Shown in pieces: positions 2,405 to 61,464 of a stretch of DNA of 64,000 nucleotides (positions are counted from its first letter, which is position 1; every line of letters begins with the position of its first letter). The stretch is from Minisyncoccia bacterium. Lineage in GTDB: Bacteria; Patescibacteriota; Minisyncoccia; Moranbacterales; GCA-2747515. The notes beneath the pieces are model-generated. The model did not search any database and was not told the origin of the DNA. It was given only the letters and a program-made list of their open reading frames with translations. The position numbers and the translations under genes were made by a program. Where the stretch lies: positions 321,899-385,898 of the forward strand of contig JBGSQF010000013.1 in assembly GCA_041738235.1 (NCBI GenBank), read 5' to 3'.

Positions 2405-2479
2405 GCCGCGTTCGTCTAGCCCGGTCAGGACGCCAGGTTCTCATCCTGGAAATCATGGGTTCGAATCCCATACGCGGTA
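2405..2479 (+). tRNA. tRNA-Glu (anticodon CUC)
   Basis: Cloverleaf read by eye: acceptor GCCGCGU/ACGCGGU (one G-U pair), D-arm GUCU/GGAC, anticodon stem CCAGG/CCUGG with loop UUCUCAU, T-arm AUGGG-UUCGAAU-CCCAU, discriminator A. CCA not encoded. Strongly resembles bacterial tRNA-Glu. Confidence 0.7.
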
Positions 2480-2491
2480 CAAATAGCAACC

Positions 2492-2526
2492 AAAAAAGAT
2501 GGTCTTAATGGCCATCTTTTTTTGTT
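2492..2526 (+). terminator. rho-independent terminator downstream of tRNA-Glu
   Basis: 8-bp stem AAAGATGG/CCATCTTT followed by a T-run of 7 or more. Confidence 0.5.
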
Positions 2527-2535
2527 TTTGTGTAG

Positions 2536-2672
2536 CCACGTATGGGATGAGAAGGGTATTTCAAAAAGGCAAACTGCTTTGCGTTTTTGAAAACCCGGGC
2601 TTTGGAGGAGAAAGCAAGGCATGTGCCAAAGGGCACGACTTGCGACGGAGGAAAAGGAATCCCATACGCGGT
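2536..2672 (+). repeat. ~137-nt structured direct repeat, copy 1 (attL-like; carries an 18-nt identical copy of the tRNA-Glu 3' end)
   Basis: About 90% identical to 6319-6456. Ends pair as a 10-bp stem CGTATGGGAT/ATCCCATACG. Internal hairpins GGCATGTGCC and GCAAG...CTTGC. The 3' end AATCCCATACGCGGTACA is identical to tRNA positions 2464-2481. Confidence 0.7.
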
Positions 2673-2678
2673 ACACTT

Positions 2679-2708
2679 AAAAAATGCCTTTTCAAAAGGC
2701 ATTTTTTT
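2679..2708. terminator. bidirectional rho-independent terminator
   Basis: A-run, palindrome ATGCCTT-TTCAA-AAGGCAT, then T7. Could terminate + transcription through repeat copy 1 and/or the minus-strand gene ending at 2888. Confidence 0.5.
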
Positions 2709-2710
2709 CT

Positions 2711-2738
2711 TACCTGTGTATGAGATTCGAACCTGATT
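2711..2738 (-). other. decayed inverted copy of the tRNA-Glu 3' half (att-site remnant)
   Basis: Minus-strand reading AATCAGGTTCGAATCTCATACACAGGTA aligns with tRNA AATCATGGGTTCGAATCCCATACGCGGTA, with a 2-nt deletion and 4 substitutions. Confidence 0.4.
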
Positions 2739-2887
2739 GTCGACACAATAACTCACTACCCACTCACTCACCGTATCTCTCCCCTTCTTTTTTCCAATAA
2801 AAAACCGACTCTTCCTTAAGTCGGCTGGGATGTCTCCCATTCGTGGCCATCTTTGGTCTTTGATTGCTCTCATCTTCTCTACTTTCC

Positions 2888-4537
2888 TCAATAGCAGAGA
2901 TAGTTGTCGTTCCAGGTATGCGGATCGGAAGGCTCCAGCCATTGCACACACCGCTTCCCTCCAATTGGTCCGGCACTGGACCAGGAGAAGTTAAGCGGAC
3001 TGCTCGGTGGCACGCAGAGGTAGTTGTCGTTCCAAGTATGCGGGTCAGCGCTTTCTCTAATCTGCGTACAGCGCATCCCTCCGATCGATCCGGCGCTGTT
3101 CCAACGCATCCCGTAGTCCTGGGTTGCGCAGAAGTAGTTATCCATCCAGGTATGCGGGTCAGCTCCTTCCGAGATCTGCGTGCAGTAGGCCCCGGAAACG
3201 GGTCCGGCATAGGACCAGACAAAAGTGCCGTCGGGACTTGTGGGGAAGTTAGTTACCGTGAACCCCATCGTCTGGGCATTATTGCCTTCGTTAGACTCAT
3301 GCAGGTTTCCCTGGTAGTCGGCGTAACATTGATAGGTGCGAGTTCCTGTGTCTCCCAGTCGGAAGCTATTGCTTATGTACTCCATCTTTTTTGCTCCGAC
3401 TCGCATGTCGCCTGCATCGACACCGTCATCTCCACGGCGGTTTCCTTGATTGATTTGGTAGTCAATGCGGAAACCGTTTGGGGCGTCACGGTTACCCACG
3501 TTTTGCACCTCGCAATACGGGTTGACGTAAGAATCCTTTCGAATGAATCCTCCCTGTCGAATAACCCAACCGTTTACCTTGAGGTACAGGTCGGAAACGA
3601 TGAGGTCGGCCTTCCAAGGCACGACATGGTAGGTGGCGCTTTTGCAGTTGTTGGCTTCGTTTAGCTCCGGAAGCCAGCCTTTGGAGTCCACGCAACAGGT
3701 GTACGTGCGATCTCCGGTGTTGCCCAGCTTCCAGCTGTCCCAGACCACTTCCGTGGCAATTTCACCCACTCTCGATTCTCCGGGGTCAAGGAAGTCCTCG
3801 TCACGCTCACTGCCATCCATACGGTGCGATACCTTGACTTGCAGAGGCGAGTCGATCTCGCCCAGATTGGTCATCTCGCAGTACGGATGCCAATAGTTAT
3901 CCTCCAATAATGTGGCGCCGTTGTAGTAGCGAGCACCCGTTATGGCATCAGAGAAATAGACGTCGGTGACGGTGAGGTCGGGACGCAGGCTTGTGACCTC
4001 GTACCGTTCCACACGGCTCTTGTTGTCACCCTCGTCATACTCTTCGACTTCGTTCCTGAAGTCGATCTCGGTGCGGAAGGCGATTGAGGAGATACCATCG
4101 GGGATGATGTAATCCTTCGTCTCCGTGATCGTCTCGCCTTCGTCGAGCTTGGCGATGGTGATGTAGCCCGTTTGCCATTGGACCCATTCTCCATCGTCGA
4201 TTGACACGAGATACTTGATGTCGATGGTGTCGGCATTGTCCCTCGTCTTCCAATTCCCCGCGTCGCCTCCCACAGCCTTCACCGCGACGCGGTTTCTGGC
4301 TTTCATACCGGGAAGGAATTGATCGTGTCCGGCGTAGAGCTCGTTGCCGTCGACACCGAGGATATCGGTGTCGTTTTTGAGGTTGACGGGGTCGAGGGGT
4401 TGAGGGTCGGTGGGATCAGATGTTGATCCGCCCGCTCCCGAGGTTGTAACAGTGATAGTAACTCCCTCGCAATCGGAAGCGAATGCCTCCGGAAGCAGAA
4501 GGAATAATGCAGTGACGAACAGTATGCCATATCTCAT
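2888..4537 (-). CDS. secreted repeat protein (549 aa) with CARDB-like segments and three C-terminal ~45-aa Cys repeats (C..DPHTW.DNY.C)
   Basis: ATG at 4537 with SD GGAGGAAAT upstream. Signal peptide MRYGILFVTALFLLLPEAFA. Three C-terminal ~130-nt tandem coding repeats. Elevated GC (~55%). The longer ORF start at 4663 overlaps the upstream gene and lacks an RBS. Confidence 0.7.
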   Translation of the reverse strand: MRYGILFVTALFLLLPEAFASDCEGVTITVTTSGAGGSTSDPTDPQPLDPVNLKNDTDILGVDGNELYAGHDQFLPGMKARNRVAVKAVGGDAGNWKTRDNADTIDIKYLVSIDDGEWVQWQTGYITIAKLDEGETITETKDYIIPDGISSIAFRTEIDFRNEVEEYDEGDNKSRVERYEVTSLRPDLTVTDVYFSDAITGARYYNGATLLEDNYWHPYCEMTNLGEIDSPLQVKVSHRMDGSERDEDFLDPGESRVGEIATEVVWDSWKLGNTGDRTYTCCVDSKGWLPELNEANNCKSATYHVVPWKADLIVSDLYLKVNGWVIRQGGFIRKDSYVNPYCEVQNVGNRDAPNGFRIDYQINQGNRRGDDGVDAGDMRVGAKKMEYISNSFRLGDTGTRTYQCYADYQGNLHESNEGNNAQTMGFTVTNFPTSPDGTFVWSYAGPVSGAYCTQISEGADPHTWMDNYFCATQDYGMRWNSAGSIGGMRCTQIRESADPHTWNDNYLCVPPSSPLNFSWSSAGPIGGKRCVQWLEPSDPHTWNDNYLCY

Positions 4538-4580
4538 GGCCGGATTTCCTCCGTTTTTGGGTTGATTGGTTGACATGTGA

Positions 4581-5300
4581 TCACTTGATGCACATGTCAC
4601 CTTTACCGAAGAGTGCATCATAGCTGACATCGTCCGGGTAATGCACCTGGAAGATGTCCGCACACACAGGCCAGGCGTACGTTCTCACGATCTGTCGGTT
4701 GCTGTCGAGTCCGTACCAGGCTTGTGCTTTGATGCACGAGGTGTCGAAGGGGTACCAGGCGTAGTTACCGACCTTGCGGACGGTGAACTGGTTGCCGGGG
4801 ATGGTGGCGGGGTCTTTCTCGTAGATGAACCCACGGAGGGTCCAACTGCCCTTAACATCAGATCCAAGATCCGTATTACGGTGATAAGTGTTACCGCTTC
4901 CTGGGTAGTAAGTGGCGTGATTAATGCCATCCTCAAACCCCTGGCTCTTATACCAATCCATCTCCAAAACATCGAAAGATCCGTCGGTGTATGCCTCCTC
5001 GACGTAAGCGACATGGCCTTCGAACTCCGCGATTGCGCCATCTTTCGGCTCGAACCCGACCATGAAGTCCAGGTTCCGAAGCTTATCGGACCACTGTCCG
5101 CCGTTCCATCCACTTCCGGTTATCGCCGAGGCGATGTCCGGGCGTTTGTATGCGGCCCACCAGGTGCAGTTTCCATGGTCACCACACTCGAAATGGCTCG
5201 TCGTGGACGTATATCCATAACACACCGAGTCACCAGCCAGCGCATTCACTCCGAAGAAAAACACGCAGACGCCAATCAGCCGAGCAAGTAAATTGCTCAT
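4581..5300 (-). CDS. secreted CHAP-domain peptidoglycan hydrolase/amidase
   Basis: Signal peptide. CHAP signature with Cys in GNCTWWAAY and downstream His in GHVAYVE. GC about 55%. Confidence 0.7.
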   Translation of the reverse strand: MSNLLARLIGVCVFFFGVNALAGDSVCYGYTSTTSHFECGDHGNCTWWAAYKRPDIASAITGSGWNGGQWSDKLRNLDFMVGFEPKDGAIAEFEGHVAYVEEAYTDGSFDVLEMDWYKSQGFEDGINHATYYPGSGNTYHRNTDLGSDVKGSWTLRGFIYEKDPATIPGNQFTVRKVGNYAWYPFDTSCIKAQAWYGLDSNRQIVRTYAWPVCADIFQVHYPDDVSYDALFGKGDMCIK

Positions 5301-5413
5301 GATATAAATCCTCTTTCAAGTTGTTAAGGGACGCACATTCTTTGAGAAACGGATATTACCGCTTCAGAGATCGCACGAGAGGTCATGCGATCAAAAAGAG
5401 GTAAAACTGTATC

Positions 5414-6103
5414 TTACTTTTTGAGAATGATACTCTCTGCCATTGTATCAAGAATTTCTTTTCTTATGATATTTTCTTGAGTCATTCTGGCAGTAAGTGT
5501 AAGTGAAATCTTCTTATTGATAATATAGTAAGACTGTTGCATTTGAGAATTTTCATACGTAGCCGAGCAATATGCAATAAAAGGTAATTTTTTGTCATTA
5601 AGAATTTTACATTCAGCAGAGGGATTATTGTCTTTTGCCATGTAGAATATGGAGTCTATCTCATCTTGAGGAGTTCCAGCATCCGAGGTTGCTGTTCCCC
5701 TGTCCGTAATCACGATCTCTGTATTATTGAAAATATCTAATGGAACATTTGATCCTATACCAGAGAAAATTCCAATGTCTGGATGTTTCTCAATATCAAA
5801 ATCTGGGTTATTCGTAATTATTTGCGCATTTTCGTTTGCATCTAGCACTTTCCAATACCACTCTTTCGGGAATTTAATCGTGAAATATTCCGTTTCTTTT
5901 GTTTGCCAATGACTCACATCGAGATCGACATCTGTCACAAAATTTTGATTCTGTTCTTCTTGCTTCCTTTGCTCTTCTTCGGTCTGTTTTTGATTCATTT
6001 CTATCCCCCTCTCCACCTTCCCCGAATACCACAAAACACCCCCGGCAATGAGGACGGCAACAACAAAGAAAATGCTGAGGAATGCGATGCTTTTTTTGGT
6101 CAT
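5414..6103 (-). CDS. membrane-anchored hypothetical protein (N-terminal TM, Gln/Glu-rich linker, beta-rich ectodomain)
   Basis: The ORF track start is a TTG. The in-frame ATG (MTKKSIAFLSIFFVVAVLIAGG) immediately precedes a TM helix. AT-rich (~33% GC), unlike the adjacent island genes. Confidence 0.45.
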   Translation of the reverse strand: MTKKSIAFLSIFFVVAVLIAGGVLWYSGKVERGIEMNQKQTEEEQRKQEEQNQNFVTDVDLDVSHWQTKETEYFTIKFPKEWYWKVLDANENAQIITNNPDFDIEKHPDIGIFSGIGSNVPLDIFNNTEIVITDRGTATSDAGTPQDEIDSIFYMAKDNNPSAECKILNDKKLPFIAYCSATYENSQMQQSYYIINKKISLTLTARMTQENIIRKEILDTMAESIILKK

Positions 6104-6318
6104 AGGGATGATAATAGATTGAATATATTTCTTGTTCAATTTACTATAATTAGCGGGATATGTCAATGTTTTTTAAGCCCGAATTTTTAAAAATACTCCA
6201 AAATCCCCCATCATTTCCCCTACCCTACTCCAATCCAAAGTTCCAAGAACATCACACAGGGGGTACAACTAAGGTAAACAAAAAATACACCCTTCCCAAG
6301 GATGTATTTTTTTTGTAA

Positions 6319-6456
6319 GCGCGTATGGGATGAGAAGGGTATTTCAAAAAGGCAAACTGCTTTGCATTTTTGAAAACCCGGGCTTTGGAGGAGAAAGCGA
6401 GGCATGTGCCAAAGGCACGCCTCGCGACGGAGGAAAAGGAATCCCGTACGCGGTTC
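6319..6456 (+). repeat. ~137-nt structured direct repeat, copy 2 (attR-like; tRNA-Glu 3' end with 2 mismatches)
   Basis: Same architecture as copy 1. Compensatory changes keep the pairing (GCAAG/CTTGC becomes GCGAG/CTCGC; an A.C mismatch at the stem end becomes G-C). Preceded by a terminator-like hairpin ATACACCCTT/AAGGATGTAT plus T8 at about 6285-6314. Confidence 0.7.
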
Positions 6457-6659
6457 AACTCAAGAGCATCTTTTTAAAGTGCATTCTACCTATTTTAGGG
6501 ATTACTCATCTAACTCAATCCCTTCTTTATAATTAGATCCTCATCAACTATCGCTACTGAACAGGAGGTAGAGATAAAAAATCCCCCCCTCTAGCTGATA
6601 AGGGATACACAAAAAAATATGTCACTACCAAAAAAATACAAGTTACCTTGACTTTCCTC

Positions 6660-9600
6660 CTACCACGTCCACGGATTCCACAATACAAAATTCTTAGTAG
6701 GTCGTGTCAAAGCTGGAGGAGTGACGGATTGTTGCGTCTGTTGAGTTTCTTGGGTTGAATTCGTTGGGTTTTGGATTTCTTCTGTGACTTGTCTTTCTGT
6801 ACGTGCTCCTTGCACACTCCCCTCTTCTGCTTGAGTTTGCGTTTCTGTCTGTGATGATACTTGTTGTATCTGACTTACGTAGTTTAGTACAATCGAAGTA
6901 TCTACTCTGTTTCCCGCTTTATCATAGGCTCGAATATTGAGAAGATACGTTCCAAGAGGAAGAGATTCGGGAAGAAGATAAAAAGACTCTTCAACACCTT
7001 GTCTTCTCCAAGACTTTAGAACTTTTCCATTCATATCGACAAGTTGAACCTTATAATAGGAAAGACCCGATCCATTAGGATTGTCAGCTGCAAGAAAATC
7101 TATTCTCTCTTTTCTGGTGAGAGTCTTTTTTTCTGGAAGAGGATTAATGAAAAAGGGATCGGTCTTATCAGTGATAAGAGTAAAGAAGTCAGAGATATCT
7201 GATCTATTCCCAGTGCTATCGATATAGCGTACGGCATATTGATTTTTTCCTTCCTTACTAGAAAGATTGAAGTTCCAAGAGCCCTTCTCATTTATAGAGA
7301 TAGTTTTGAGTTTTTTAGTACCTCCTTTATCTGTTTTGGTATAGAGAGTTATGGTTCCATTTCTTGCTTTTGGATTCTTTCCCTTAAGTCTGGGAGTGGT
7401 ATCGGATCGATAGTTAACATCTTTGAAAGAAATAGATTCCTCATTAGCAGAAAGGTTGCTCTTATTGTCATTTTGGAATTGTTCAAGGTTGGATTCTGAA
7501 GTTTGAAGCGTGGCGGAGTGAATGACAGGAGTGATATTGGGATCTTGTGTAGAAAGAGTTGCTTTCCAAGTAAAATTATTTGCTTTGGTATACTGGGGAA
7601 ATGTTATGGGAGGAGTGAAATCAGCCCAAGTAGATCCGTTGTCTATTGAGTATTGATACTCAATGCTAGTGCCTTCTGGAATCGTTTGATCTGTCTGGAA
7701 AGAGAGGAGTTCATTGGTATTTGGGAAAGAGAGGGTTTGTGAGGTGTAAGTGCCTGAATCAGAGATAAAAAGTCCGTCCTCTTGCCGAGCATATTTGATC
7801 TCCACGCTATCAAGGCTGGGCGTAATGGAATTGTCTTGAGTCGCAAGAACTGCCTTATAGCGAAAGTTGCGGGATAAGTTAACAGGCAGAGCATAAATGC
7901 CAGGATCGGTTCCCAAACTTGTGTATGTTTGACCTTCATCAAAAGAGTAGAACATTTCTATAGAAGTTCCTTCGGGAATAGTGGCTTCCCAAGATAGCTC
8001 AGAATACACCTCTTTTTGGTACGTGTCGGAAATATATTCTAAAGAAAAAAAATAATTCGTATCAAGAACGTTCGTATCTGAATCATTGTCCACATCGGTA
8101 CAGAGATCTGTATTTGATCCTCCAATAGCATAAATCCCACCATTTACCAACTCAGTTGATACTCTATTGAGACCAGTTGGTAATATCCCAATAATATCCC
8201 ATTTATCGTACTCCGGGTCATAGCTATATATATCCTTTGCACGAATAAGCGCATCATCTTTTCCTCCAATATATATAAGCTTACCATTTATAACTACCGT
8301 ATCACCACCACCTCGATATGAAGGCAGAAATGCCAAATCCGTATCCCATGTATCCGTGGCTGGATCATAACTTGCCATAGAGTTGGACACCATACCATCA
8401 CAATCCCGCCTCGCCCCAACGATATACAACTTTCCATTAATAAATTGACCCGAAGCCTGATTCATTTTTACAACAGGGGCAGGTGTTCCGGCCTCCCAAG
8501 TATCTGTTTCTGGATCATAGATCTCCATCTCAGTAGATGAAAGACCAGAACAATCTAAACCACCACTAATGTAGACAGGACCACCTCCCACGACATAGAT
8601 CTTCCCGTTATATACTCCTCCGACAGCTCCTTCCCTCACCCGACTCATAGGTGCGCCCGCTGTCCAAGTATCCGTTTCTGGGTCATATATTTCTACAGAA
8701 GAAAGTTCTGTCTTTGTAGGATAAACTCCGGTAGCACCTCCAAAGACATAGAGTTTGCTATCGTACGCAACAACCATTGGTCTCGTTCTTGTTTGCACCA
8801 TTGGGGATTTAGTCTCCCATGTATCGGTTGCTGTGTCGTAAACCAATAATGTATTATGTCCGCAATTTCCACAACTCATCTTTCCCCCACCCACAACATA
8901 TATTTTTGAACCAATAACAGCACTTCCCGCGCCTTTTGTCTCTTCGGGAAGAGGCGCTTTGTTTTGCCAAGTGTCACTCGATTCAGCATATACGGTTTTA
9001 ACATAAACTCCCTCACTATTATATACGTTATCTATATCAACAACCGAAAGACCGCTTTTATTATCCTCTTCATAGAAAGCCCCTGATTCACTCTTTTTGA
9101 CACTAACATACAAAAGATGATGAGTACCATCCAGAAAAGAATTGTGAACGCTATTATTTACGATTTCTGGAGTTGAAACATTATTATACGTTTTGACCAA
9201 AACATCATCTGCTGGACTCACTGTTCCCCGTGTATCAATAACCGAGAGGGCACCATTATTAATATTGGGATCATTTTTACTACTTACATATAAGAGATCG
9301 TTCGCAGAATCTAAAAAGGCATGCACTACATAATTATTCGCTATCGCTGGGGTGGTAGTTGTTTTATAAGTGATCACCAAAACATCGTCAGTGGCGGTCA
9401 CAGTTCCTTGCGTGTTGATCACGGTAAGACCACCCCCTAAAGTCCCCACATACAAAAGGTTATGCACCGAATCCATAAAGGAGTACGAAACATTGTTACC
9501 CCCGATCGCTGGGGTGGTAGTTGTTTTATAAGTGATCACCAAAACATCGTCAGTGGCGGTCACAGTTCCTTGCGTGTTGATCACGGTAAGACCACCACTT

Positions 9601-10436
9601 GTACTAACGTAAAGGAGATGCGTCGTCTCATCCAAGAAAGCATGCGATACGGAATTATGTCCTATCGCAGGTGTGGTGGTAGTTTTGTATGTTTTTACAA
9701 GTGTGTCATCACCAGCGCTGACCGTTCCTTGCGTGTTGATCACGGTAAGACCTCCACCCAAAGTAGCTATATAGAGAAGATTACGTAAATCATCAAGAAA
9801 AGCATATTTAACAGTGCTGTCATCGATTGCTGGGGTTGTAGTAGTGGTGTAGGTAGTAACCAAAACATCATCAGAGGGAGAAACAGTTCCTTGCGTGTTG
9901 ATCACAGATAATCCCTGACCATCAATGCTTATGTAGAGAAGATCGTTCTTTAAGAATGAGTTATGTATCATATTCCCGGGCAATGCTGGAGTCGATTCTG
10001 TGGAGTAAGTAATAATCAAACTGTCATCAGTTGGATCAACGGTATTACGCGTGTCTATAACTGAAACGCCTAATGAAGTATTAATATACAAAAGACCCTT
10101 AGAGACATCGAGAAATGAACTCCCTGTATTCCTGCTACTAAGCCCCGCAAAAGATCCGCTGGAATATAAATAACTTTTACCAAGAGTTACTTTCCCCTCA
10201 CCATTACGTGAAACTCTTGTAACAAGAGGACTATTATTTACGTAACCTGAATTAAAATCTCCGTCTGTGGTATCTGTATGAATGGTAGTTTTATATTTTA
10301 GACGTAAGTCTCCCGGAATTTGATAAAGATCAATATTTTCATCAGTTGTCCCCATCTCCCAATCCTCCTGAGAAGTAAAAACTTGCCCCTGACTTGAGGC
10401 GTAGACGAACTGCAAAGAAAAAAAGGGGGCCAACAA
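6660..10436 (-). CDS. giant secreted surface protein (1258 aa): YVTN-like beta-propeller repeats, Kelch-repeat propeller, Ig/FN3-like domains, Gln/Thr-rich C-terminus
   Basis: Six or seven ~54-aa repeats LLYV..GGGLTV(I)NTQGTV...TTTTPAI. Kelch-like blades (KIYVVGGG, KLYVFGG, YDPETDTW). The annotated start is TTG. A canonical signal peptide lies upstream in another frame (see findings). Confidence 0.75.
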   Translation of the reverse strand: MLAPFFSLQFVYASSQGQVFTSQEDWEMGTTDENIDLYQIPGDLRLKYKTTIHTDTTDGDFNSGYVNNSPLVTRVSRNGEGKVTLGKSYLYSSGSFAGLSSRNTGSSFLDVSKGLLYINTSLGVSVIDTRNTVDPTDDSLIITYSTESTPALPGNMIHNSFLKNDLLYISIDGQGLSVINTQGTVSPSDDVLVTTYTTTTTPAIDDSTVKYAFLDDLRNLLYIATLGGGLTVINTQGTVSAGDDTLVKTYKTTTTPAIGHNSVSHAFLDETTHLLYVSTSGGLTVINTQGTVTATDDVLVITYKTTTTPAIGGNNVSYSFMDSVHNLLYVGTLGGGLTVINTQGTVTATDDVLVITYKTTTTPAIANNYVVHAFLDSANDLLYVSSKNDPNINNGALSVIDTRGTVSPADDVLVKTYNNVSTPEIVNNSVHNSFLDGTHHLLYVSVKKSESGAFYEEDNKSGLSVVDIDNVYNSEGVYVKTVYAESSDTWQNKAPLPEETKGAGSAVIGSKIYVVGGGKMSCGNCGHNTLLVYDTATDTWETKSPMVQTRTRPMVVAYDSKLYVFGGATGVYPTKTELSSVEIYDPETDTWTAGAPMSRVREGAVGGVYNGKIYVVGGGPVYISGGLDCSGLSSTEMEIYDPETDTWEAGTPAPVVKMNQASGQFINGKLYIVGARRDCDGMVSNSMASYDPATDTWDTDLAFLPSYRGGGDTVVINGKLIYIGGKDDALIRAKDIYSYDPEYDKWDIIGILPTGLNRVSTELVNGGIYAIGGSNTDLCTDVDNDSDTNVLDTNYFFSLEYISDTYQKEVYSELSWEATIPEGTSIEMFYSFDEGQTYTSLGTDPGIYALPVNLSRNFRYKAVLATQDNSITPSLDSVEIKYARQEDGLFISDSGTYTSQTLSFPNTNELLSFQTDQTIPEGTSIEYQYSIDNGSTWADFTPPITFPQYTKANNFTWKATLSTQDPNITPVIHSATLQTSESNLEQFQNDNKSNLSANEESISFKDVNYRSDTTPRLKGKNPKARNGTITLYTKTDKGGTKKLKTISINEKGSWNFNLSSKEGKNQYAVRYIDSTGNRSDISDFFTLITDKTDPFFINPLPEKKTLTRKERIDFLAADNPNGSGLSYYKVQLVDMNGKVLKSWRRQGVEESFYLLPESLPLGTYLLNIRAYDKAGNRVDTSIVLNYVSQIQQVSSQTETQTQAEEGSVQGARTERQVTEEIQNPTNSTQETQQTQQSVTPPALTRPTKNFVLWNPWTW

Positions 10437-10583
10437 ACATAAAAAAAAGGAAAAAACAATATTTTTTTTATTTTTTTCAGCATATCTTTAATAATTATTT
10501 TAACGCAAACCTTCTAAGAAAATGTAATAAAACCACTTTTTCAATAATATCACAAACATCCAAACTAAGATACATTAGATCTG

Positions 10584-11870
10584 CTATGGCATCGTATACG
10601 GTATCTCTTTCCATCGTTTGGTTTGTCGACAGAGAAGTTTTCCCGCTTCCTCCGGATGCGCCATCGCTTGCTCAACGGCCAACTCCATTCGCATGCCCTG
10701 TGATCCCTTTACTAAAACAATGTCGTTGGTGCGAAGATGACTCACAATAAATTTCCCAGCCGATACAGGATCTTCAAAAAGCGCTATGGATTTCTTATGT
10801 ATCCCCTCTCGTTCCAAAGCGTCCCCCAAGAGTTTCATACGCGACCCCACCAATACGATCCCAGCTGGTCGCATCTTTGCTATTGGCTTGGCTAACAACA
10901 TATGCCCTTCCACCTCTTCCGCGCCTAACTCCAACATATCTCCCAGAATGAGTATCTTTCTCCCAAAAGGAATCTGTTCAACTGTCTTTACCGCCGCAAG
11001 CGTTGATGTTGGAGAGGCGTTATACGTATCGTCAAATATCCATGATCCATTCACCCCAGAAATTGGCTGAAGCCTCCCAGGAGAGAGCTGGAAATCTTCC
11101 GATGTTTGAATAACTTCCAAAAGATTTATTTTCAGAGCATCGGCCACCGCAAACGCCGCAAGCACCGCATACACGTGGTGTTTGGCAACAAGATATTTCA
11201 AGCGGATCGGGAGGGTTTTTCCATCGTACTGTATTTTAAACCGCATACCGCACAAACCTTTATCAGTACATACCACAGAATCATTGAACGCGCGTAGCGT
11301 AGCTCGTTTGTGAAAACCATATCCGATGATCCGAGCAGAGGTTCGTTTTCTCATCTTCCATACCCGCACATCATCAGCATTAAGCACCGCGTACCCATCT
11401 GAGCTCAACGCCTCAATAAGCCTTCCCTTTTCTTCGGCGATCGCATCAAGGGATCCAAAGAACTCAAGATGACTCGAGGATATCTCCGTCACAACTGAAA
11501 CATTGGGACGCACAATCGAAAGAAGATATTTCATATCTCCCGGACGATCTACACCCAATTCCAATATCAAGGCATCTGGATATCGAATACGAAAAACCAT
11601 CAACAATAAAAATCGAAATCCGACTCCTATCCACCGAACGAGAGACCTTCCCGGAGCATCACATCCAAGTATTGTCAGAGGGACGCCAATTTCATTATTG
11701 AAGTTCTTTTCACTGCCACGCACAAACACGCGTGGTGAAAGGATGTGCATGATAGCGTCTTTTGTGGTCGTTTTTCCAACTGAACCAGTCACGCCTACAA
11801 CAACCGGTCGGTACTTTAGAAGCACCCCTTTGGCCATATATTTCAATATCCACTGCATCAATCCTTTCAT
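10584..11870 (-). CDS. murF: UDP-N-acetylmuramoyl-tripeptide--D-alanyl-D-alanine ligase (Mur ligase family)
   Basis: P-loop VVGVTGSVGKTTTKD, Mur ligase middle domain, DDTYNASP motif. Follows ftsI in the dcw gene order. Confidence 0.8.
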   Translation of the reverse strand: MKGLMQWILKYMAKGVLLKYRPVVVGVTGSVGKTTTKDAIMHILSPRVFVRGSEKNFNNEIGVPLTILGCDAPGRSLVRWIGVGFRFLLLMVFRIRYPDALILELGVDRPGDMKYLLSIVRPNVSVVTEISSSHLEFFGSLDAIAEEKGRLIEALSSDGYAVLNADDVRVWKMRKRTSARIIGYGFHKRATLRAFNDSVVCTDKGLCGMRFKIQYDGKTLPIRLKYLVAKHHVYAVLAAFAVADALKINLLEVIQTSEDFQLSPGRLQPISGVNGSWIFDDTYNASPTSTLAAVKTVEQIPFGRKILILGDMLELGAEEVEGHMLLAKPIAKMRPAGIVLVGSRMKLLGDALEREGIHKKSIALFEDPVSAGKFIVSHLRTNDIVLVKGSQGMRMELAVEQAMAHPEEAGKLLCRQTKRWKEIPYTMP

Positions 11871-20828: not shown

Positions 20829-23348
20829 TCATGGAAACTTTGGAAATGCTGGGGGTGGCGAGGGAGCATTTGCCCGATTAAGACGATCTTCTATCTCTTT
20901 TTTTACAACATCCTTGTCTCGACCATAGCGCAAGCGAGACAATTCTTTTACTATCTCCACCTGTTCAGGTCGACCCTCTTTTGGTATATAGGTTTTCATA
21001 TTAAAAGGTTTTGTAGATTCATTGTTCATAAGTGCTCGCACAAAACAACTGTAATTATCAGCGTTCACCAGATCGTTGGCGGTAAATATCGGTTCAAATT
21101 GCTTTTCCAAGAATTCTGCATCTTCTGGTCCCACGCGAAATGCCGCCATTGATCCCACGTTCCCAAAGACCGCTTTAGAAATTTCCTCAGAAAGTTGTCC
21201 AATGAATTGATGTGCGATCGTCAGGTCCAAACGATACTTTCTCGCTTCTGAGAGGATCTGTGAAATAGAATCGGTTGTCACATTCTGAAACTCATCAATG
21301 TACAAATAAAAGTCACGACGTGTTGCCTCCGGCATATCTACACGCGACAATGCTGCCATCAACAATTTTCCGACTATCACCATACCAAGCAGATAACTGT
21401 TTGTTTCACCGATCTTTCCCTTGGAGAGATTGATAAGCAAGATCTTTCCTTCGTCCATAACCTTCCGAAAATCGATCGTGCTGACTTGCTGCGAAATGAT
21501 AGGTCGCATCATATCGTTAGCGATAAATTGCGTAAGTTTTGAAGTGATATAGGGTACCATATTGGCAAGCGATGCCTCTCCCCCAGCCTTCTCGGCCTCC
21601 TTCTGCCAAAAGTCCTTTACAATAGGATTCCCACACTTTGTAAGTTTATAACGACGAAATTGGTCGTCGGCGAGCACCTTTGGGATCTCCATTAACGTCG
21701 ACCCCGATTCCGGATCTTCCATAACCAAGAGCATGGCATTTCGCATATATTGCTCAAACATCGGACCCCCCGTTTGTTTGAGATCGTACAGCTTGTCAAA
21801 GATATTGATCATCTCATTGATCACGAAAGTTTTCTCCTCCGGACGATGGTACTCGAGCATATTAAGCCCAAAGGGGCGTTCAATGTCCGAGGGATCAAAA
21901 TGTACAACATCTTCCAAACGTTCTGCGGGGATCGATGCAAGGAGTGACTCAATGGCATCCCCGTGCGGATCGATAAAACACATTCCTTTACCATTGGCGA
22001 TATCCTGTTTTGCCAAACCCTCAAGAAAAACAGATTTACCAACACCTGTCTGTCCGATCACATACAAGTGTCGCCGTCGGTCTGAGTCGGAAAGGCGAAT
22101 ATCCGTCTTTGTGCCACGATAATCATTAAAGCCAAGTGCAAGCCCTTCTTTTGGAATGTTGGTAGGAGGAGGAGCAGCACCTGCCTTAAGCCATTTGATC
22201 TTTGGCGTTTGCGTCGTGGATATAGGAAAGTGAAACATACCCGCCAACTCTTCCACGCCCAAAACAACACTATTCCCCTTATTGAAAGTCCTCATTATAT
22301 AGTCAAACACTACGGCTTTCTTTTGGATCCTCTTTTTGACAACGAGATAATTAATATCAGCACGCTCAAACTGCCCAAAGGCATTTTCCATCTGTCCGAG
22401 TATTTGATCCGCCCGTTGGCGAGTCTTCGCCGAGGCAAGAAGACGAATATTCACAAAAAAAGCTCCTTTTCTCGTTTTTTGCTCAATGGCTTTTACAAGT
22501 TCCTGCTCATCAGGGGTCAACTGTATCGGATCCTTTTCCGACGGCATTTTTCGCTCTTGATCCTTACGCTTTCCTCCACCAGAGGCAACCACATCCAAAA
22601 AACCCTTACCCACCCCACCTGCAACATCTTTAATGATCGATTTACGAACATCCTTGAGCTGTTTTCCCTGTTGCATCTTATGAGCGATATTTCTCCCGGT
22701 ACTTCGCCATCCATCCCCTGCCGGCACGAGAAGGAATTGAATAGCCGCCCCTTCCTCTATCGTCTCAAGTCGACTAAGCGCATTACTGATCTCATTCATC
22801 GGATCGACGTCCATCTCCTCGTACGTCAGTAGCGGCAACGCAGATGAACCCTTGAGCGTGAGAGCAGAAACAGCGTGTTCGGAATCTGAGGTAAAGATCG
22901 TATAGTCGGAAGTTTGTTCGATAAGCGCATCTGGAAAAAAACTGTGGATCTGCTTCTCTATCGCCTCGCGGTATCGCCTTGGAAAAGAAACATAAAAAAA
23001 TATCTCCTCACTATTCGACGGATTCGCCATTTCCAGAGAGAACGTTGCGTCCCCCATTGGATTTCCAAACATAGAATGGCGTTTCTTTAGCCCTGCGAGC
23101 GAAGCGAGTAGTTGTTCCATTGCTCCTATTTCTTCTTTCCACTGTTCAGGATTGCCTCCAGTCTCCCCCTGTTTCTTGCCCCCTCCAAGAGTAACTCGAA
23201 CGACCTCCAGATCCATATTCAAAGACGCCTGTACCTTTCGACGAAAGACCACGATAGATTGAAAAAGAAAAACACCGCCACTTATAAATGCTGCTATCCC
23301 AGCAATAAGTATCAGTGAAAGAAACAAAAGCTGAATTGGATCTGTCAT
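20829..23348 (-). CDS. type IV secretion/conjugation-type ATPase (VirB4/TrbE-like or VirD4/TraG-like), 839 aa
   Basis: N-terminal TM helix and a ~400-aa N-domain. Walker A LYVIGQTGVGKS followed by IDPHGD, Walker B YLYIDEFQNV, motif RKYRLDLTIAHQFIGQL. Confidence 0.6.
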   Translation of the reverse strand: MTDPIQLLFLSLILIAGIAAFISGGVFLFQSIVVFRRKVQASLNMDLEVVRVTLGGGKKQGETGGNPEQWKEEIGAMEQLLASLAGLKKRHSMFGNPMGDATFSLEMANPSNSEEIFFYVSFPRRYREAIEKQIHSFFPDALIEQTSDYTIFTSDSEHAVSALTLKGSSALPLLTYEEMDVDPMNEISNALSRLETIEEGAAIQFLLVPAGDGWRSTGRNIAHKMQQGKQLKDVRKSIIKDVAGGVGKGFLDVVASGGGKRKDQERKMPSEKDPIQLTPDEQELVKAIEQKTRKGAFFVNIRLLASAKTRQRADQILGQMENAFGQFERADINYLVVKKRIQKKAVVFDYIMRTFNKGNSVVLGVEELAGMFHFPISTTQTPKIKWLKAGAAPPPTNIPKEGLALGFNDYRGTKTDIRLSDSDRRRHLYVIGQTGVGKSVFLEGLAKQDIANGKGMCFIDPHGDAIESLLASIPAERLEDVVHFDPSDIERPFGLNMLEYHRPEEKTFVINEMINIFDKLYDLKQTGGPMFEQYMRNAMLLVMEDPESGSTLMEIPKVLADDQFRRYKLTKCGNPIVKDFWQKEAEKAGGEASLANMVPYITSKLTQFIANDMMRPIISQQVSTIDFRKVMDEGKILLINLSKGKIGETNSYLLGMVIVGKLLMAALSRVDMPEATRRDFYLYIDEFQNVTTDSISQILSEARKYRLDLTIAHQFIGQLSEEISKAVFGNVGSMAAFRVGPEDAEFLEKQFEPIFTANDLVNADNYSCFVRALMNNESTKPFNMKTYIPKEGRPEQVEIVKELSRLRYGRDKDVVKKEIEDRLNRANAPSPPPAFPKFP

Positions 23349-38749: not shown

Positions 38750-39183
38750 GGGGTTGTTTAGATTCGACAGGTTGTTATTTGACATAAGTAAGCAAGCCGG
38801 TTCACGCGCGGTAACACCGAAACCTTCTCCGCGCACTCGATAAGTGCAAACTTCATCACAAAAGCCAAAGACGCTATTGCGCGAGCATTTAGCACCTCTT
38901 TCGCTACCGCCCTGGCTTAATTGCCGAGGCCATCGAATTTCGTGACTCCTTATAACGAATGTTCGGTGTCATATGTATAAGGATAGTCCTCTTCCCCCTT
39001 CTCGAAGGAAGAAGGACGAAACCTCCGAGACCGCCTTAGATGTACTTTGTTTGTTTCTGGGCATCTTCGGTTGGTTCAGGTGAAGGGAAGTAATGCGCCT
39101 TTTATCTGTCAAACAAACTCTGCTTGAAGAAAGCTTTGTCATATCATCTCTGGACATGGGTGCAATTCCCATCAACTCCACCA
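38750..39183 (+). ncRNA. ssrA: tmRNA (ssrA), ~434 nt
   Basis: 5' GGGGTTGTTTAGATTCGACAGG matches the tmRNA consensus GGGGCUGAUUCUGGAUUCGACGGG. 3' GGACATGGGTGCAATTCCCATCAACTCCACCA matches the T-arm plus acceptor and encoded CCA. Acceptor pairs GGGGUUG/CAACUCC. In-frame tag ORF ends ...FATALA-TAA (stop 38918-38920). Lies just downstream of smpB. Confidence 0.8.
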
Positions 39184-44899: not shown

Positions 44900-45385
44900 T
44901 TACCGCTCCAGTACCACAAACCGATACTGAAAATTCTCATCTTGACTCGGTCGGTCACTTATAGTTTTCCCGAAACTTCCCTCATATTCAGGAAAAAAAA
45001 CATCGGCATCAGGAAAACTGGCATCGATCAACGTCAAATATAATCTATCAGATTTTGGAAGAAAAAGCGAGTACACCATCGCCCCACCAATGACAAAAGC
45101 CTCCCCATCCTTCTCATACTGCTCAGCCAATAGAAGGGCCTCCTTCAGGCTGTACGCCACGATCACTCCCTCGAAAGCAAAATTTTTATCTTGGGTAAGA
45201 ACAATATTTACCCTTTTTGGAAGCGGTCGACCAATCGATTCAAACGTCCTTTGTCCCATGATCACTACATGCCCACGCGTAGTATCACGAAAATATTGCA
45301 TATCTTCAGGAATGTTCCACAGTAGAGCATTATTTTTCCCTAATTCTCGATTTTTTCCAACAGCCGCGACCATAGAAAGGATCAT
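44900..45385 (-). CDS. folA: dihydrofolate reductase
   Basis: MILSMVAAVGKNRELGKNNALLW...VIMGQRTFESIGRPLPKR.NIVLT. ATG at 45385 gives a ~161-aa DHFR. Confidence 0.8.
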   Translation of the reverse strand: MILSMVAAVGKNRELGKNNALLWNIPEDMQYFRDTTRGHVVIMGQRTFESIGRPLPKRVNIVLTQDKNFAFEGVIVAYSLKEALLLAEQYEKDGEAFVIGGAMVYSLFLPKSDRLYLTLIDASFPDADVFFPEYEGSFGKTISDRPSQDENFQYRFVVLER

Positions 45386-45395
45386 AAATAGACAG

Positions 45396-46040
45396 TTAGG
45401 GTTTAAAAATAGATGAATATATTTCCTCGGAAATTTCCTCAACAGGTCGTAAAACTCCCCTCCGCACACATTGAATCGTAACCCATCCATACCTTTTTGC
45501 CAACCATCGAGCACACCGAGATGATCGATCCTGGTACACCCTGTTTTTCTCTGCCATATCCCGATCTTTTTCTTGGATCATATCACGCGAAACAAGAACA
45601 GGAACATGCAAGAATACCGTCTTGTTTGGTTTTGGCAGTCCAAGAACGCCATACTCTAGACCTTCGATCCATTGTAAAAATTCTTTTCTTTGTGAATTAT
45701 TCAGGATCTTTCCCCCTTGATGGATCTGGTTAGAGCTCACATACCGGTCTAGAACGACTATACACCCTTCCTTGAGCCACCGCTCAATCTTCTGCTTCGA
45801 TTCAAAACGATCCACAGCATACAGCACTGAAGCGATACGCGCATCCAACTCCATAAAACCTCCATGCAAACCTCGTAAACACTCCCCGATCAACCCGCCA
45901 CAAATATTCTTTTCATACTGGGGAAAATCAAGCGTCCGCACCTTGTGTCCCATTTGCCTCAACCGTTTTACCAACGATCTCGCCTGTGTCGCTTTCCCCG
46001 ACCCGTCTATTCCATCAATAACGATAAGTTTGCCTTTCAT
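45396..46040 (-). CDS. tmk: thymidylate kinase
   Basis: LIVIDGIDGSGKATQ P-loop, DRY-like motif, lid region. Confidence 0.85.
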   Translation of the reverse strand: MKGKLIVIDGIDGSGKATQARSLVKRLRQMGHKVRTLDFPQYEKNICGGLIGECLRGLHGGFMELDARIASVLYAVDRFESKQKIERWLKEGCIVVLDRYVSSNQIHQGGKILNNSQRKEFLQWIEGLEYGVLGLPKPNKTVFLHVPVLVSRDMIQEKDRDMAEKNRVYQDRSSRCARWLAKRYGWVTIQCVRRGVLRPVEEISEEIYSSIFKP

Positions 46041-58261: not shown

Positions 58262-58681
58262 TCAAAATGTAGTATTTGACCCCCTCAACCAGGTATCGAT
58301 CGCCGTAATAATGATCAATCCTGAAAGCATTATAATAACACCGACGATCGAATAGATCATATTGCGTTTTGCTGTTTCAATAATGTCATCATTCCCAGCA
58401 GAAACTAAATATTGTATCCCGGAGATCACGAAAGCGATAATAGCAACGGTACCAGCAATTAGCAAAAGCCACTTTAAAACATTGAGCGATACCTCTAGCG
58501 GAGTCTTTTCCGACAATCCAAGTTTTGTCCCTTTTGGGACACATGTTCCTTTATACAGCGTAAGGTTAGAATCTTGCTTTGTACAATCGGACTCAGTGAG
58601 CGCATATACATTTGACTGTAAGAGAAAGCAAGAAAGAAATAAAAAACTTATCAAAAAAAGTTTTTTCATATCAAAAATCAT
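58262..58681 (-). CDS. secreted protein with conserved C-terminal two-helix membrane hairpin module (pilin-like paralog 1; VirB2/TrbC-like topology)
   Basis: Signal peptide, ~45-aa ectodomain, then the shared module LKWLLLIAGTVAIIAFVISGIQYLVSAGNDDIIETAKRNMIYSIVGVIIMLSGLIIITAIDTWLRG. Confidence 0.55.
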   Translation of the reverse strand: MIFDMKKLFLISFLFLSCFLLQSNVYALTESDCTKQDSNLTLYKGTCVPKGTKLGLSEKTPLEVSLNVLKWLLLIAGTVAIIAFVISGIQYLVSAGNDDIIETAKRNMIYSIVGVIIMLSGLIIITAIDTWLRGSNTTF

Positions 58682-58740
58682 AATCTATTTTTACTTTCTT
58701 ATTTTTACAAGATCTTATTTCCATTTTACCACTTTTCACC

Positions 58741-58776
58741 CAAAAACAAAAGCGACCCTTGGCATAGGATCGCTCT
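58741..58776 (-). terminator. rho-independent terminator after paralog 2
   Basis: Minus-strand AGCGATCC-TATGCCAAG-GGTCGCT followed by TTTTGTTTTTGG. Confidence 0.4.
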
Positions 58777-58796
58777 TGCGAAAATACAGAGAGTAT

Positions 58797-59222
58797 TTAG
58801 AACTGAGAGGTGGTTCCGCCAAGCCAGGTACTGACCGCATTGATGATGATGAGTCCCATAAGCGCTACGATCACACCAACGATCGCGTAGATCATCGTTG
58901 TCTTTGCTTTCTCTATTTTGTCATCATCTCCAGCCGCAGTGAGGTACAGGATACCAGAGATCACAAAAGCGATAACCGCCAAAAATCCTACTAAATAGAG
59001 CAACCAGCGCATTAATGTAAGCACAACCACTGAGATCCGAGCAGAAGACAATTCAGATGCCGACCCCGAATCAGTAAGTCCAGTTGACCACCCGCCGTCT
59101 GCCGGACCAGTAATTGCCGCCTCCACTCCTCCTGCCAAAGAAAACAAAACGACTCCGAAAACAAATACCGAAACAATAAACAAAGCACCTCGCATTTTCT
59201 CCACCAAAAACATTTGCCTCAT
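58797..59222 (-). CDS. pilin-like paralog 2 (same C-terminal module, Ser/Gly-rich ectodomain)
   Basis: Module MRWLLYLVGFLAVIAFVISGILYLTAAGDDDKIEKAKTTMIYAIVGVIVALMGLIIINAVSTWLGG. About 90% aa identity to paralog 3 over the module, with a shared 33-nt identical core. Confidence 0.55.
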   Translation of the reverse strand: MRQMFLVEKMRGALFIVSVFVFGVVLFSLAGGVEAAITGPADGGWSTGLTDSGSASELSSARISVVVLTLMRWLLYLVGFLAVIAFVISGILYLTAAGDDDKIEKAKTTMIYAIVGVIVALMGLIIINAVSTWLGGTTSQF

Positions 59223-59260
59223 ACTTTTTTTATTAATTTTTAAACATTATGTAATAAACA

Positions 59261-59647
59261 TTAAAATTGAGCAGTTTGTCCGCCAAGCCAAGTATTTATG
59301 GCATTCACAATAATGAGTCCCATGAGCCCAACAATTACCCCAATGATTGCATAGATCATCGTTGTCTTTGCTTTCTCTATCTTATCGTCATCACCTGCTG
59401 CAGTAAGGTAAAATATAGCAGAAATCACAAAAGCAATGATCGCAAGAAATCCCATGATATAAAGAAGCCAGCGCAGAAGGCTCAGGACAACCCCAGATAT
59501 GGACGTCGAGCTCAAACCAAGTCCGGTCAAGTTAGAATTACTGGTTGGATTTGTCCACTGTGCGCTCACCACCACTGGAGCAAGAAGAAGAGATGCTCCA
59601 ATCCCATACCACATCCGCCGAATGTTTCGAATTATGTGCATAGGCAT
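59261..59647 (-). CDS. pilin-like paralog 3
   Basis: Signal peptide, ~35-aa ectodomain, then the conserved module ...AAGDDDKIEKAKTTMIYAIIGVIVGLMGLIIVNAINTWLGG. Confidence 0.55.
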   Translation of the reverse strand: MPMHIIRNIRRMWYGIGASLLLAPVVVSAQWTNPTSNSNLTGLGLSSTSISGVVLSLLRWLLYIMGFLAIIAFVISAIFYLTAAGDDDKIEKAKTTMIYAIIGVIVGLMGLIIVNAINTWLGGQTAQF

Positions 59648-60066: not shown

Positions 60067-61464
60067 CTACTGTACATATATAAGAACCGTTGATTTCTTT
60101 GTTGTATCAGCTTTGTATATCGCTGTTATAGTCGTACTCCCTGCAGAAACAGCTCGCACGACCCCATTATCATCAACCGTTGCCACGGCAGTGTTACTTG
60201 ACGTCCAGGTAGCAAGATCATTTGAGATCTGAGTTCCCCCCTGTGGTGGCCCAAGGGCGGGACACTGGATCGCCTGTGTGCTCGTATAGAGGTTTAGGAC
60301 CGTTTCACTCCCCACACTTGCGGTCTTCATCCCGGGACATGCGATAAGATATGCGATATCCGGAGGAAGAACGAGTATTTGAACAGATTCCTTTCTTCCG
60401 TTTATTGCTGCCGTGATCGTAACATTTTTCCCACCCGTAGTAGTGGCTGGTGCGGTCACCTTTCCCTTATCAACGGTAGCTAGGGTAGTATCAGATGATG
60501 TCCAGGTAGCCGTACTGGTAACATCGGTAGCACTTCCGGTATTATTGCAATCCGAGATCGTACTTGTGGCAGAATCCCATGCCTTAAGCTGAACCGAATC
60601 TCCTGCTTTAAGTGATTGGCTCGCGTACAACCCACATATGGCCATATCCCCACTTCCACTACCCCCACCACCTCCGCTACCACCTCCTCCACCGTCACTA
60701 CCACCATCTCCCGATTCAGAAGTTGTGTTACACGACACCTGCCACCAATTGCCCGATACATAACTCTTGTTGATCGGGAGTACCAGGATAACGGCATTGA
60801 TGATCACCCAAGAAAGTAATACGATCGTAAAACCAACAAGTGTATTTTTAATGAATGTTTTAGCACTTTCCATCATGGAGGAGTTCCCTGCTGAAGCAAT
60901 GTACATGAGACCCGCCGCCACCAACATCACAAATGCCACTGCTGTCAAAACCCTCATACCCCAATTGATGATATTTTGAATGAGTTGGAAAAGATGACAG
61001 AGCGTACAAGTAGACTGTCCTGTTCCACCACACGGAACCAATCCACCAGATGAAGATCCCGTATTTGTTTGAGAAGTCGACTCCGTCCCACCACAACAAA
61101 TGTCTGTCGTTCTTTTGGTGCAATCGGTACTCGTCCCAGAAGTCTGCCCCCCAGTACAAGCAGAAGAAGCAACACAAGAACCGTCCTTGTAGGTCTTTCC
61201 CCCAGATGTATAACTACAGGACTGTGCCTGAATGTCAATTTGCAAGATCGCATCACAACAAATATCCGTCTGAGAAGTACATTGGTTACTAGCCCCCTTA
61301 AATTGAGAAGTACAGGATGTTGCAAGCTTGCACGTCCCTGCGTACGTATACGATCCACTCGCATAGGTGCATGTTTCACCCGCTGCAAACACTTCTTGAG
61401 GCAAGCCCACTATCACCGCCAACGAGAATAACCCAAGAAAAAATGTGAGGATCTTTGTTTTCAT
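60067..61464 (-). CDS. 465-aa chimeric surface protein: signal peptide, three Cys-rich ~40-aa repeats, embedded pilin-like two-helix module, poly-Gly/Ser linker, two Ig-like (Big_2-type) domains
   Basis: Repeats C.Y.SG..TY..G.C......C......C....TDICC. Module INWGMRVLTAVAFVMLVAAGLMYIASAGNSSMMESAKTFIKNTLVGFTIVLLSWVIINAV. Linker GDGGSDGGGGGSGGGGGSGSGD. Two segments with ATVD..G.V.A...G..TITA. Confidence 0.6.
   Translation of the reverse strand: MKTKILTFFLGLFSLAVIVGLPQEVFAAGETCTYASGSYTYAGTCKLATSCTSQFKGASNQCTSQTDICCDAILQIDIQAQSCSYTSGGKTYKDGSCVASSACTGGQTSGTSTDCTKRTTDICCGGTESTSQTNTGSSSGGLVPCGGTGQSTCTLCHLFQLIQNIINWGMRVLTAVAFVMLVAAGLMYIASAGNSSMMESAKTFIKNTLVGFTIVLLSWVIINAVILVLPINKSYVSGNWWQVSCNTTSESGDGGSDGGGGGSGGGGGSGSGDMAICGLYASQSLKAGDSVQLKAWDSATSTISDCNNTGSATDVTSTATWTSSDTTLATVDKGKVTAPATTTGGKNVTITAAINGRKESVQILVLPPDIAYLIACPGMKTASVGSETVLNLYTSTQAIQCPALGPPQGGTQISNDLATWTSSNTAVATVDDNGVVRAVSAGSTTITAIYKADTTKKSTVLIYVQ

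Follow-up and report, generated by a model that had tools for sequence, protein, structure and literature searches.

A one-base deficit in the homopolymer-packed leader of a large, predicted secreted repeat/Kelch/Ig-like protein gene from a Moranbacteria-like Patescibacterium

Two reading frames and six homopolymer runs at the 5' end of a large gene

The stretch of DNA analyzed here, referred to as the window, comprises 64,000 nucleotides of a metagenome-assembled genome (MAG; contig JBGSQF010000013.1, positions 321,899 to 385,898), and the host genome is that of a Moranbacteria-like member of the Patescibacteria. Our subject is the 5' end of a large gene on the minus strand, for which the start codon and the body of the gene lie in different reading frames. 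The ATG at 10483-10481 (minus strand) starts the sequence MLKKIKKILFFPFFYVCWPPFFLCSSS... in a frame that we call frame A; the region upstream of it is AT-rich and has no Shine-Dalgarno motif, as at other gene starts in the window. Frame A terminates at a TAA after 61 codons, and the corresponding open reading frame (ORF) is listed at 10298-10483 (minus strand; MLKKIKKILFFPFFYVCWPPFF LCSSS...), with a peptide that begins MLKKIKKILFF. The second frame, frame L, is open on the same strand from 6660 to 10487, and the listed ORF within it (6660-10436) encodes 1258 amino acids (aa) from a nominal TTG start. Both frames, including the start of a signal peptide at ATG 10483, had been described in a sequence-only reading of this DNA, and inspection of the minus strand together with the ORF listing confirms them. 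The plus-strand coordinates that it gave for an A7 tract (10418-10424) and an adjoining G5 tract (10425-10429) are also correct.

Frame L is reached from frame A by insertion of a single nucleotide, which is equivalent to a -1 shift of the ribosome. As the same reading had proposed, one extra A in the A7 tract (a T on the coding strand) fuses the two frames into MLKKIKKILFFPFFYVCWPPFFSLQFVYA/SSQGQ..., where the slash marks the predicted cleavage, and this yields a 1274-aa ORF without stops. The predicted signal-peptidase site, V-Y-A/S in frame L (10397-10406, minus strand), was read by eye from the sequence; the cut would fall between 10398 and 10397, and the mature N-terminus predicted from it, SSQGQVFTSQEDWEMGTT, can be aligned with homologues. 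In frame L, the later half of the signal peptide (..APFFSLQFVYA) is followed by ~53-aa tandem repeats, a Kelch propeller, a beta-sandwich, Big_13 Ig-like domains, and a C-terminal WNPWTW. In frame A, real signal-peptide sequence is confined to the first 9-22 codons, and the remainder is out-of-frame read-through of the mature region.

Six homopolymer runs on the coding (minus) strand are candidate sites of the missing base. From the start codon onward these are an A7 run that provides Lys-Lys codons (10471-10477), an A8 run (10462-10469) containing an in-phase A_AAA_AAA at 10469-10463 and thus a possible site of transcriptional or ribosomal slippage, a T6 run (10451-10456) in which one added base likewise restores the ORF, a T8 run (10441-10448) with an in-phase T_TTT_TTT at 10448-10442, and a C5 run (10429-10425) that continues directly into a T7 run (10424-10418). 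This last composite site (10418-10429), which holds C_CCT_TTT and T_TTT_TTT in phase, is the one at which the sequence-only reading had placed the crossing of the frames. Since frame L is open up to 10487, past the ATG, and frame A is open down to 10298, the crossing could lie anywhere between 10483 and ~10400. One additional base in any of the six runs (10477-10418, between the ATG and the conserved part) produces a 29-aa signal peptide joined to the whole 1274-aa ORF. The T7/C5 site is therefore a possible one but not unique, and the shift cannot be pinned to it: the longer A8 and T8 runs are at least as likely, and their repair gives a better hydrophobic core. Repairs in A7, A8, T6, or T8 lead to ...FFLCLLAPFFSLQFVYA, with a mean Kyte-Doolittle value of 2.3-2.4 over the core, and repair in T7/C5 leads to ...FYVCWPPFFSLQFVYA, with a mean of 1.46. 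A priori, the 8-nt runs would also be the most mutable, if they measured 9 nt before the base was lost. The signal peptide of a homologous locus, L006 (MKKTVKKLGLFILIFQFAFLPFISQNTFA/SSGSQTLTTQADF), is likewise 29 aa long. By comparison with it, the authentic residues would be MLKKIKKIL from the ATG frame and APFFSLQFVYA/SSQGQVFTSQEDW from the long frame, which is weak evidence for a lesion between T6 and T7.

The density of runs in this leader is exceptional, and the length of each run is ordinary. Runs of at least 5 nt account for 41 of 80 bases, and no other 80 nt of the window is as dense in homopolymers. When codons were resampled given the peptide and the codon usage of the window, 41 or more run bases were obtained with P ~5e-5 to 1.4e-3, and at least four runs of at least 7 nt with P 0.008-0.034. 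The highest load among 16 homologous signal-peptide regions is 25 run bases, versus 41 here. Single tracts of 7-8 nt are common, with 58 runs of at least 7 nt in the window and a window maximum of 8. A signal-peptide gene elsewhere in the window (58262-58681) is also rich in A/T runs, yet it is intact.

Across the whole window, A or T runs do not exceed 8 nt, and 13 of them are exactly that long. Related loci totaling ~200 kb include seven 9-mers but no longer runs, from which ~3 would be expected in the window; the absence of A/T runs of at least 9 nt is not significant against relatives (P ~0.06). A technical ceiling on run length was considered as the cause and rejected on this ground. The missing 9-mers in the window and their rarity in relatives fit with 9-mers being unstable, and avoidance of 9-mers is known (PMC1088944).

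The encoded protein, its family, and its signal peptide

Pfam searches of the large protein identified Kelch_1 (4e-36) and Big_13 Ig-like (5e-9) domains. Its N-terminal third is made of the ~53-aa repeats (LLYVST..GGLSVINTQGT), which are common to many proteins of Moraniibacteriota, Paceibacterota, and Dojkabacteria. The protein has the complete architecture of repeats, Kelch propeller, beta-sandwich, and Big_13, and it aligns end to end with four homologues (P0002-P0005) at 39-44% identity. Against the closest of these, P0002, the downstream ORF also aligns from end to end and carries no further lesion. The two proteins have in common the ending ...WNPWTW after a Q/T/E-rich linker (6660-6720, minus strand), which is missing from the other family members inspected and could be a sorting or anchoring motif.

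Among ~18 homologues, an in-frame signal peptide precedes the same mature N-terminus (A/SxxQ..TSQxDF..GT), and a signal peptide is thus expected for the large gene. Where the homologues read xxA/..Q..TSQxDFxxGT, the window reads VYA/SSQGQVFTSQEDWEMGT. The charged n-region MLKKIKK directly follows the ATG, and the corresponding MKKxxKK pattern is also present in L006, L016, and L015. As assembled, the hydrophobic core is split over two frames; only after +1 repair is it uninterrupted and followed by V-Y-A/S, for a signal peptide of 29 aa. On these sequence grounds, the large gene appears to need an N-terminal signal peptide that is split here by a one-base deficit inside homopolymers.

In every homologue whose 5' end can be read, the signal peptide is in frame with the mature part, and none of the ~18 has a frameshift inside it. 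L016 has an ATA at the position of the start codon. Two further homologues, P0006 and P0022, are gene-caller truncations for which an in-frame upstream ATG or GTG restores the signal peptide (L001 1459-1503; L002 1456-1503). Frame breaks at other loci were examined as possible comparable shifts and rejected: those in L006, L010, and L017 are N-gaps, and those in L007 and L016 are located in the repeat region, outside the signal peptide. In L007 the frame changes at a (TA)6 dinucleotide run in the LLY motif of a repeat unit (3590-3610), which could reflect microsatellite slippage or misassembly of the repeats. In L016 one base is missing at an A4 run in the repeat region (6640-6665), and the ATA (5938-5960) stands where a paralogue in the same MAG has ATG (L006 5941); L016 is a probable pseudogene or a low-quality assembly. 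A lipoprotein signal in the large protein was rejected by eye, as neither Cys is preceded by an acceptable lipobox.

The exact protein is public only as P0001, on one NCBI contig of 407,907 bp. That gene call gives 1231 aa and starts at an internal ATG (10355-10353) preceded by AGGAGG at 10369-10364 (together 10353-10369, minus strand). A relative, L021, has ~80-84% nucleotide identity to the window over mraZ..murF, and the shared synteny ends exactly at the murF stop (window 2480-10583 versus L021 6895-7236); L021 was accordingly ruled out as a source of the orthologous 5' end.

Reproducibility and origin of the frameshift

The murF-like gene (10584-11870, minus strand), which encodes a Mur ligase, lies upstream of the large gene as the last gene of the dcw block, and it was used as an anchor for finding independent assemblies of the locus. 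The exact MurF protein is also encoded in Logan per-run assemblies, and this led to two contigs that cover murF together with the initial 400-800 nt of the large gene. One comes from SRR28170474 (3259 nt) and the other from SRR28170473 (3069 nt), and each matches the window with 100% identity, all six tracts included. Our literature search found no paper that mentions either run. The MAG and both Logan assemblies therefore contain one allele, the out-of-frame one; all are consensus assemblies, which cannot show minority alleles. Exact-pattern scans of collections of genome contigs and metagenome contigs found no other copy of the locus, an exact look-up of the public protein P0001 gave no record, a search of a plasmid collection with the locus gave no match, and a protein search with the N-terminal 267 aa for fragments of an in-frame allele returned distant homologues only.

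We also examined how other genes of the window fare at homopolymers. Besides the focal T7, 41 runs of at least 7 nt lie in frame inside window genes, eight of them 8 nt long. Pfam coverage is essentially end to end for MraW, MraZ, DHFR, Tmk (thymidylate kinase), PBP, Mur ligase, and GyrB, and for an AcrB-like protein the Pfam match extends over the N-terminal half only. Based on Pfam coverage and the in-frame run count, no homopolymer frameshift was found in any other gene of the 64-kb window; these two measures replaced a crude indel simulation at runs of at least 5 nt, which was too noisy. Overlapping ORFs at 190-1458, 2505-4663, and 44900-46040 were considered as frameshifts and rejected as over-extended starts or spurious ORFs. 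Overall, the identical Logan alleles, the clean in-gene runs, and the full Pfam coverage indicate that the assembly is not prone to homopolymer indels and that the allele is reproducible.

These results bear on the suggestion, made in the sequence-only reading, that the shift could equally be a sequencing artefact. If it arose in sequencing or assembly, the true genome would be one base longer in one run and the gene would be intact. Homopolymers are the classic sites of indel miscalls and six of them cluster here, the remainder of the large gene is perfectly intact, and the lack of any run of at least 9 nt would fit a systematic compression of 9 to 8. However, that lack is not significant and is biologically expected (PMC1088944), Logan assembled the identical sequence independently from two separate runs, and neither the other in-gene runs nor the neighboring genes with essentially full Pfam coverage have a frameshift. 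We therefore regard an artefact as improbable. A different possibility is that the locus is an evolved phase-variable contingency locus, at which selection keeps the cluster of runs, slipped-strand mispairing toggles secretion, and the assemblies caught the OFF state. In favor of this proposal, the cluster lies in the first part of a gene for a large, variable surface protein at a synteny break, the 1258 codons downstream are intact, and the homopolymer load exceeds both the expectation from peptide and codon usage and that of each of the 16 homologous signal-peptide regions; switching is known for tracts of 6-7 nt, as in inlA (PMC2831843). On the other side, a single allele is found across three assemblies, many in-frame runs elsewhere in the window are just as long as the tracts, no homologue is shifted inside its signal peptide, the measured rates for A6/A7 tracts are only ~1e-7 to 1e-6, and our literature search gave no report of homopolymer phase variation in Patescibacteria. 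The idea that homopolymers of other surface genes would show the same pattern was checked in the window and did not hold, since the other secreted or pilin genes there are in frame. Thus, of the contingency-locus proposal in the sequence-only reading, the 5' tracts that could toggle the ORF are present, but neither a second allele nor recurrence was found; the proposal stays conjectural, and we consider it unlikely. A broader version, that the six-run cluster is a selected slippery leader serving as a multi-tract export switch, with phase variation in the DNA and leaky -1 restoration at the level of RNA or the ribosome, seems to us distinctly doubtful.

The genomic frameshift could also be the functional wild type, if expression involved programmed recoding by an obligatory -1 ribosomal frameshift or by transcriptional slippage in the run cluster. 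Four X_XXY_YYZ heptamers are in phase in the ATG frame (A_AAA_AAA at 10469-63, T_TTT_TTT at 10448-42 and 10424-18, and C_CCT_TTT at 10427-21), from each of which a -1 slip leads into the long frame. Efficient -1 slippage at AAA-AAA near start codons is known to occur without a stimulator (PMC1851650). The longest runs at the locus, A8 and T8, barely reach the length of known slippage sites, for which the threshold is typically 9, with 8 functional in some insertion sequence (IS) elements and apoB (PMC1088944). On the other hand, no run of at least 9 nt is present, and the coincidence of heptamer phase is not significant (~0.15 by chance, given three long runs). Furthermore, there is no downstream stimulatory structure (z = 0.35; the nearest small hairpin lies 17 nt downstream of T7), and the two-frame layout is not conserved, with all homologues encoding signal peptide and mature protein in one frame. 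These last two observations make a programmed site unlikely, and we consider obligatory recoding very improbable. The remaining alternative is that there is no functional defect because translation starts elsewhere, at TTG 10436, ATT 10460, or the internal ATG 10355, to give a product without a classical signal peptide. In its favor, TTG 10436 is in the long frame, the public call uses ATG 10355 with a perfect AGGAGG 8 nt upstream, and L016 provides a homologue with ATA at the start position. Yet TTG 10436 yields only MLAPFFSLQFVYA, ~13 aa without a charged n-region, and the genome does not use Shine-Dalgarno motifs (its leaders are AT-rich), the AGGAGG being explained by conserved Q-E-D codons. 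In addition, homologues conserve the stretch ahead of ATG 10355 as coding sequence, and all domains of the protein are of extracellular type. The internal ATG is probably not the biological start, and a different start as the general explanation is extremely unlikely.

With moderate confidence, we favor a genuine slippage-type deletion of one base in a homopolymer-packed signal-peptide leader, which would leave the gene for a secreted repeat/Kelch/Ig-like protein in an OFF or leaky state. The frameshift is present in the DNA of the dominant genotype, and beyond it the ORF is intact and, measured against the closest homologue, full length. Under the favored reading, a 1274-codon gene is one base short at its 5' end, within 60 nt made almost wholly of homopolymers, and this deficit would cut off the remainder of the gene from its ATG and from the N-terminal, Lys-rich portion of the signal peptide. 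Replication slippage may have deleted the base in one run; A9 to A8 or T9 to T8 would be the likeliest events, because longer runs slip more and because these repairs give the better hydrophobic core. The resulting allele would be OFF for secretion or strongly down-shifted, and the same slippage could revert it at a low rate.

The allele is probably leaky. RNA polymerase might restore the frame by adding a base at the A8/U8 runs, or the ribosome might do so by a -1 slip at the in-phase A_AAA_AAA or U_UUU_UUU heptamers. For apoB, insertion of one more A into an A8 run yields ~10% full-length product, and A8 also serves in some IS elements (PMC1088944). Single-base deletions near the start codon of pDEST17 are suppressed at 25-60% by -1 slippage at C-AAA-AAA (PMC1851650), and non-programmed, diffuse -1 suppression reaches 1-10% in aggregate (PMC10861913). 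From these precedents of suppressed single-base deletions a leaky phenotype is plausible, if speculative, and such leakiness would help to explain why the allele can be tolerated with the ORF still intact.

Several points weigh against this reading. The MAG and the two Logan assemblies probably derive from one study, and a systematic homopolymer miscall may be common to all three. The run that lost the base cannot be singled out among the six, as all repairs restore the ORF. No in-frame allele was found in any assembly or collection searched, which leaves reversibility to inference, and the fold of the mRNA offers no stimulatory structure to promote a leak. We find no evidence for an evolved, regularly used switch.

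Genomic surroundings, implications, and comparison with known systems

A terminator-like hairpin followed by a T-run lies ~55 nt past the stop codon of the large gene (6586-6605, minus strand). It falls within a 493-nt stretch downstream of the gene (6167-6659) that holds no convincing gene and has runs of its own (T8 6307-6314, C7 6583-6589, A7 6611-6617, and A7 6630-6636). The block from the giant gene to a tRNA-Glu(CTC) gene (2405-2480, plus strand) also encodes CARDB, CHAP, and unknown proteins. Its GC content is uneven, at 51% for 2-4 kb and 40-42% for 6-10 kb, and the block may be a variable island. Elsewhere in the window, three tandem small T4SS_pilin-like genes are found beside a larger pilin-domain/Big_2 protein, with a VirD4/TraG-like coupling ATPase further along (58262-59647, 60067-61464, and 20829-23348, all minus strand). 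Together these look like the type IV secretion or pilus-like set typical of bacteria of the candidate phyla radiation (CPR). A full-length tmRNA with the tag ANFITKAKDAIARAFSTSFATALA is encoded at 38750-39183 (plus strand).

Patescibacteria live attached to host cells, and variation of their surface proteins is largely unexplored. If the locus were a reversible switch or a leaky recoding site, ultra-small episymbiotic bacteria would share with pathogens the use of simple-repeat devices, here to tune how far a giant adhesin-like protein is exposed; if the slippery leader were indeed selected, Patescibacteria (CPR) would have their first described contingency or recoding locus. If it is merely a recent inactivating deletion, the public annotation from an internal ATG hides both the signal peptide and the lesion, a practical lesson that also follows from P0006 and P0022, whose signal peptides were truncated by gene callers.

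Among known systems, the poly-G/C contingency loci of Campylobacter and Neisseria resemble this locus in having a repeat in the 5' coding part of a surface-exposed protein, the length of which sets the frame. At those loci the tracts as a rule exceed the genomic background in length, are rich in G/C, occur in many genes of one genome, and demonstrably vary within populations. The present locus showed none of these tract properties. Phase variation of glpK in M. tuberculosis is reportedly a further case that involves a short tract.

A second comparison is with the rescue of genomic frameshifts by transcriptional slippage at A/T runs, for which Blochmannia is said to offer another example. Such loci combine a one-base deficit adjoining A/T runs with an otherwise intact gene in which an extra mRNA base would restore the frame, as here; the documented runs are mostly at least 9 nt (8 in a few), whereas the maximum here is 8 (Baranov et al. 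2005, PMC1088944). Citrobacter tssM is described, in the report at PMC4256274, as having a genomic frameshift rescued by transcriptional slippage. Demonstrations of non-programmed -1 suppression (pDEST17, PMC1851650; tiling proteomics, PMC10861913) are confined to over-expression in E. coli and two other bacteria, and our locus lacks a conserved stimulator. The likeness lies in a deletion close to the start codon and in AAA-AAA and UUU-UUU heptamers that are in phase, such that a -1 slip restores the frame.

Finally, Listeria monocytogenes inlA (A7 in frame, A6 shifted; Orsi, Bowen & Wiedmann 2010, PMC2831843) represents the same kind of event as the one proposed here. The two cases differ in that both inlA alleles have been seen in strains and the reversion rate has been measured, whereas only the out-of-frame allele is found here, in an uncultivated Patescibacterium, with six clustered runs and an ambiguous site. 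Switching of inlA is slow (A6 to A7 ~5.5e-7, A7 to A6 ~4e-8; PMC2831843). Both genes encode large surface proteins with a short A/T homopolymer in the first codons, in the region of the signal peptide; in both, the tracts belong to the 6-8 nt length class, the loss of one base leads to a truncated product, and reversion by slippage is possible.

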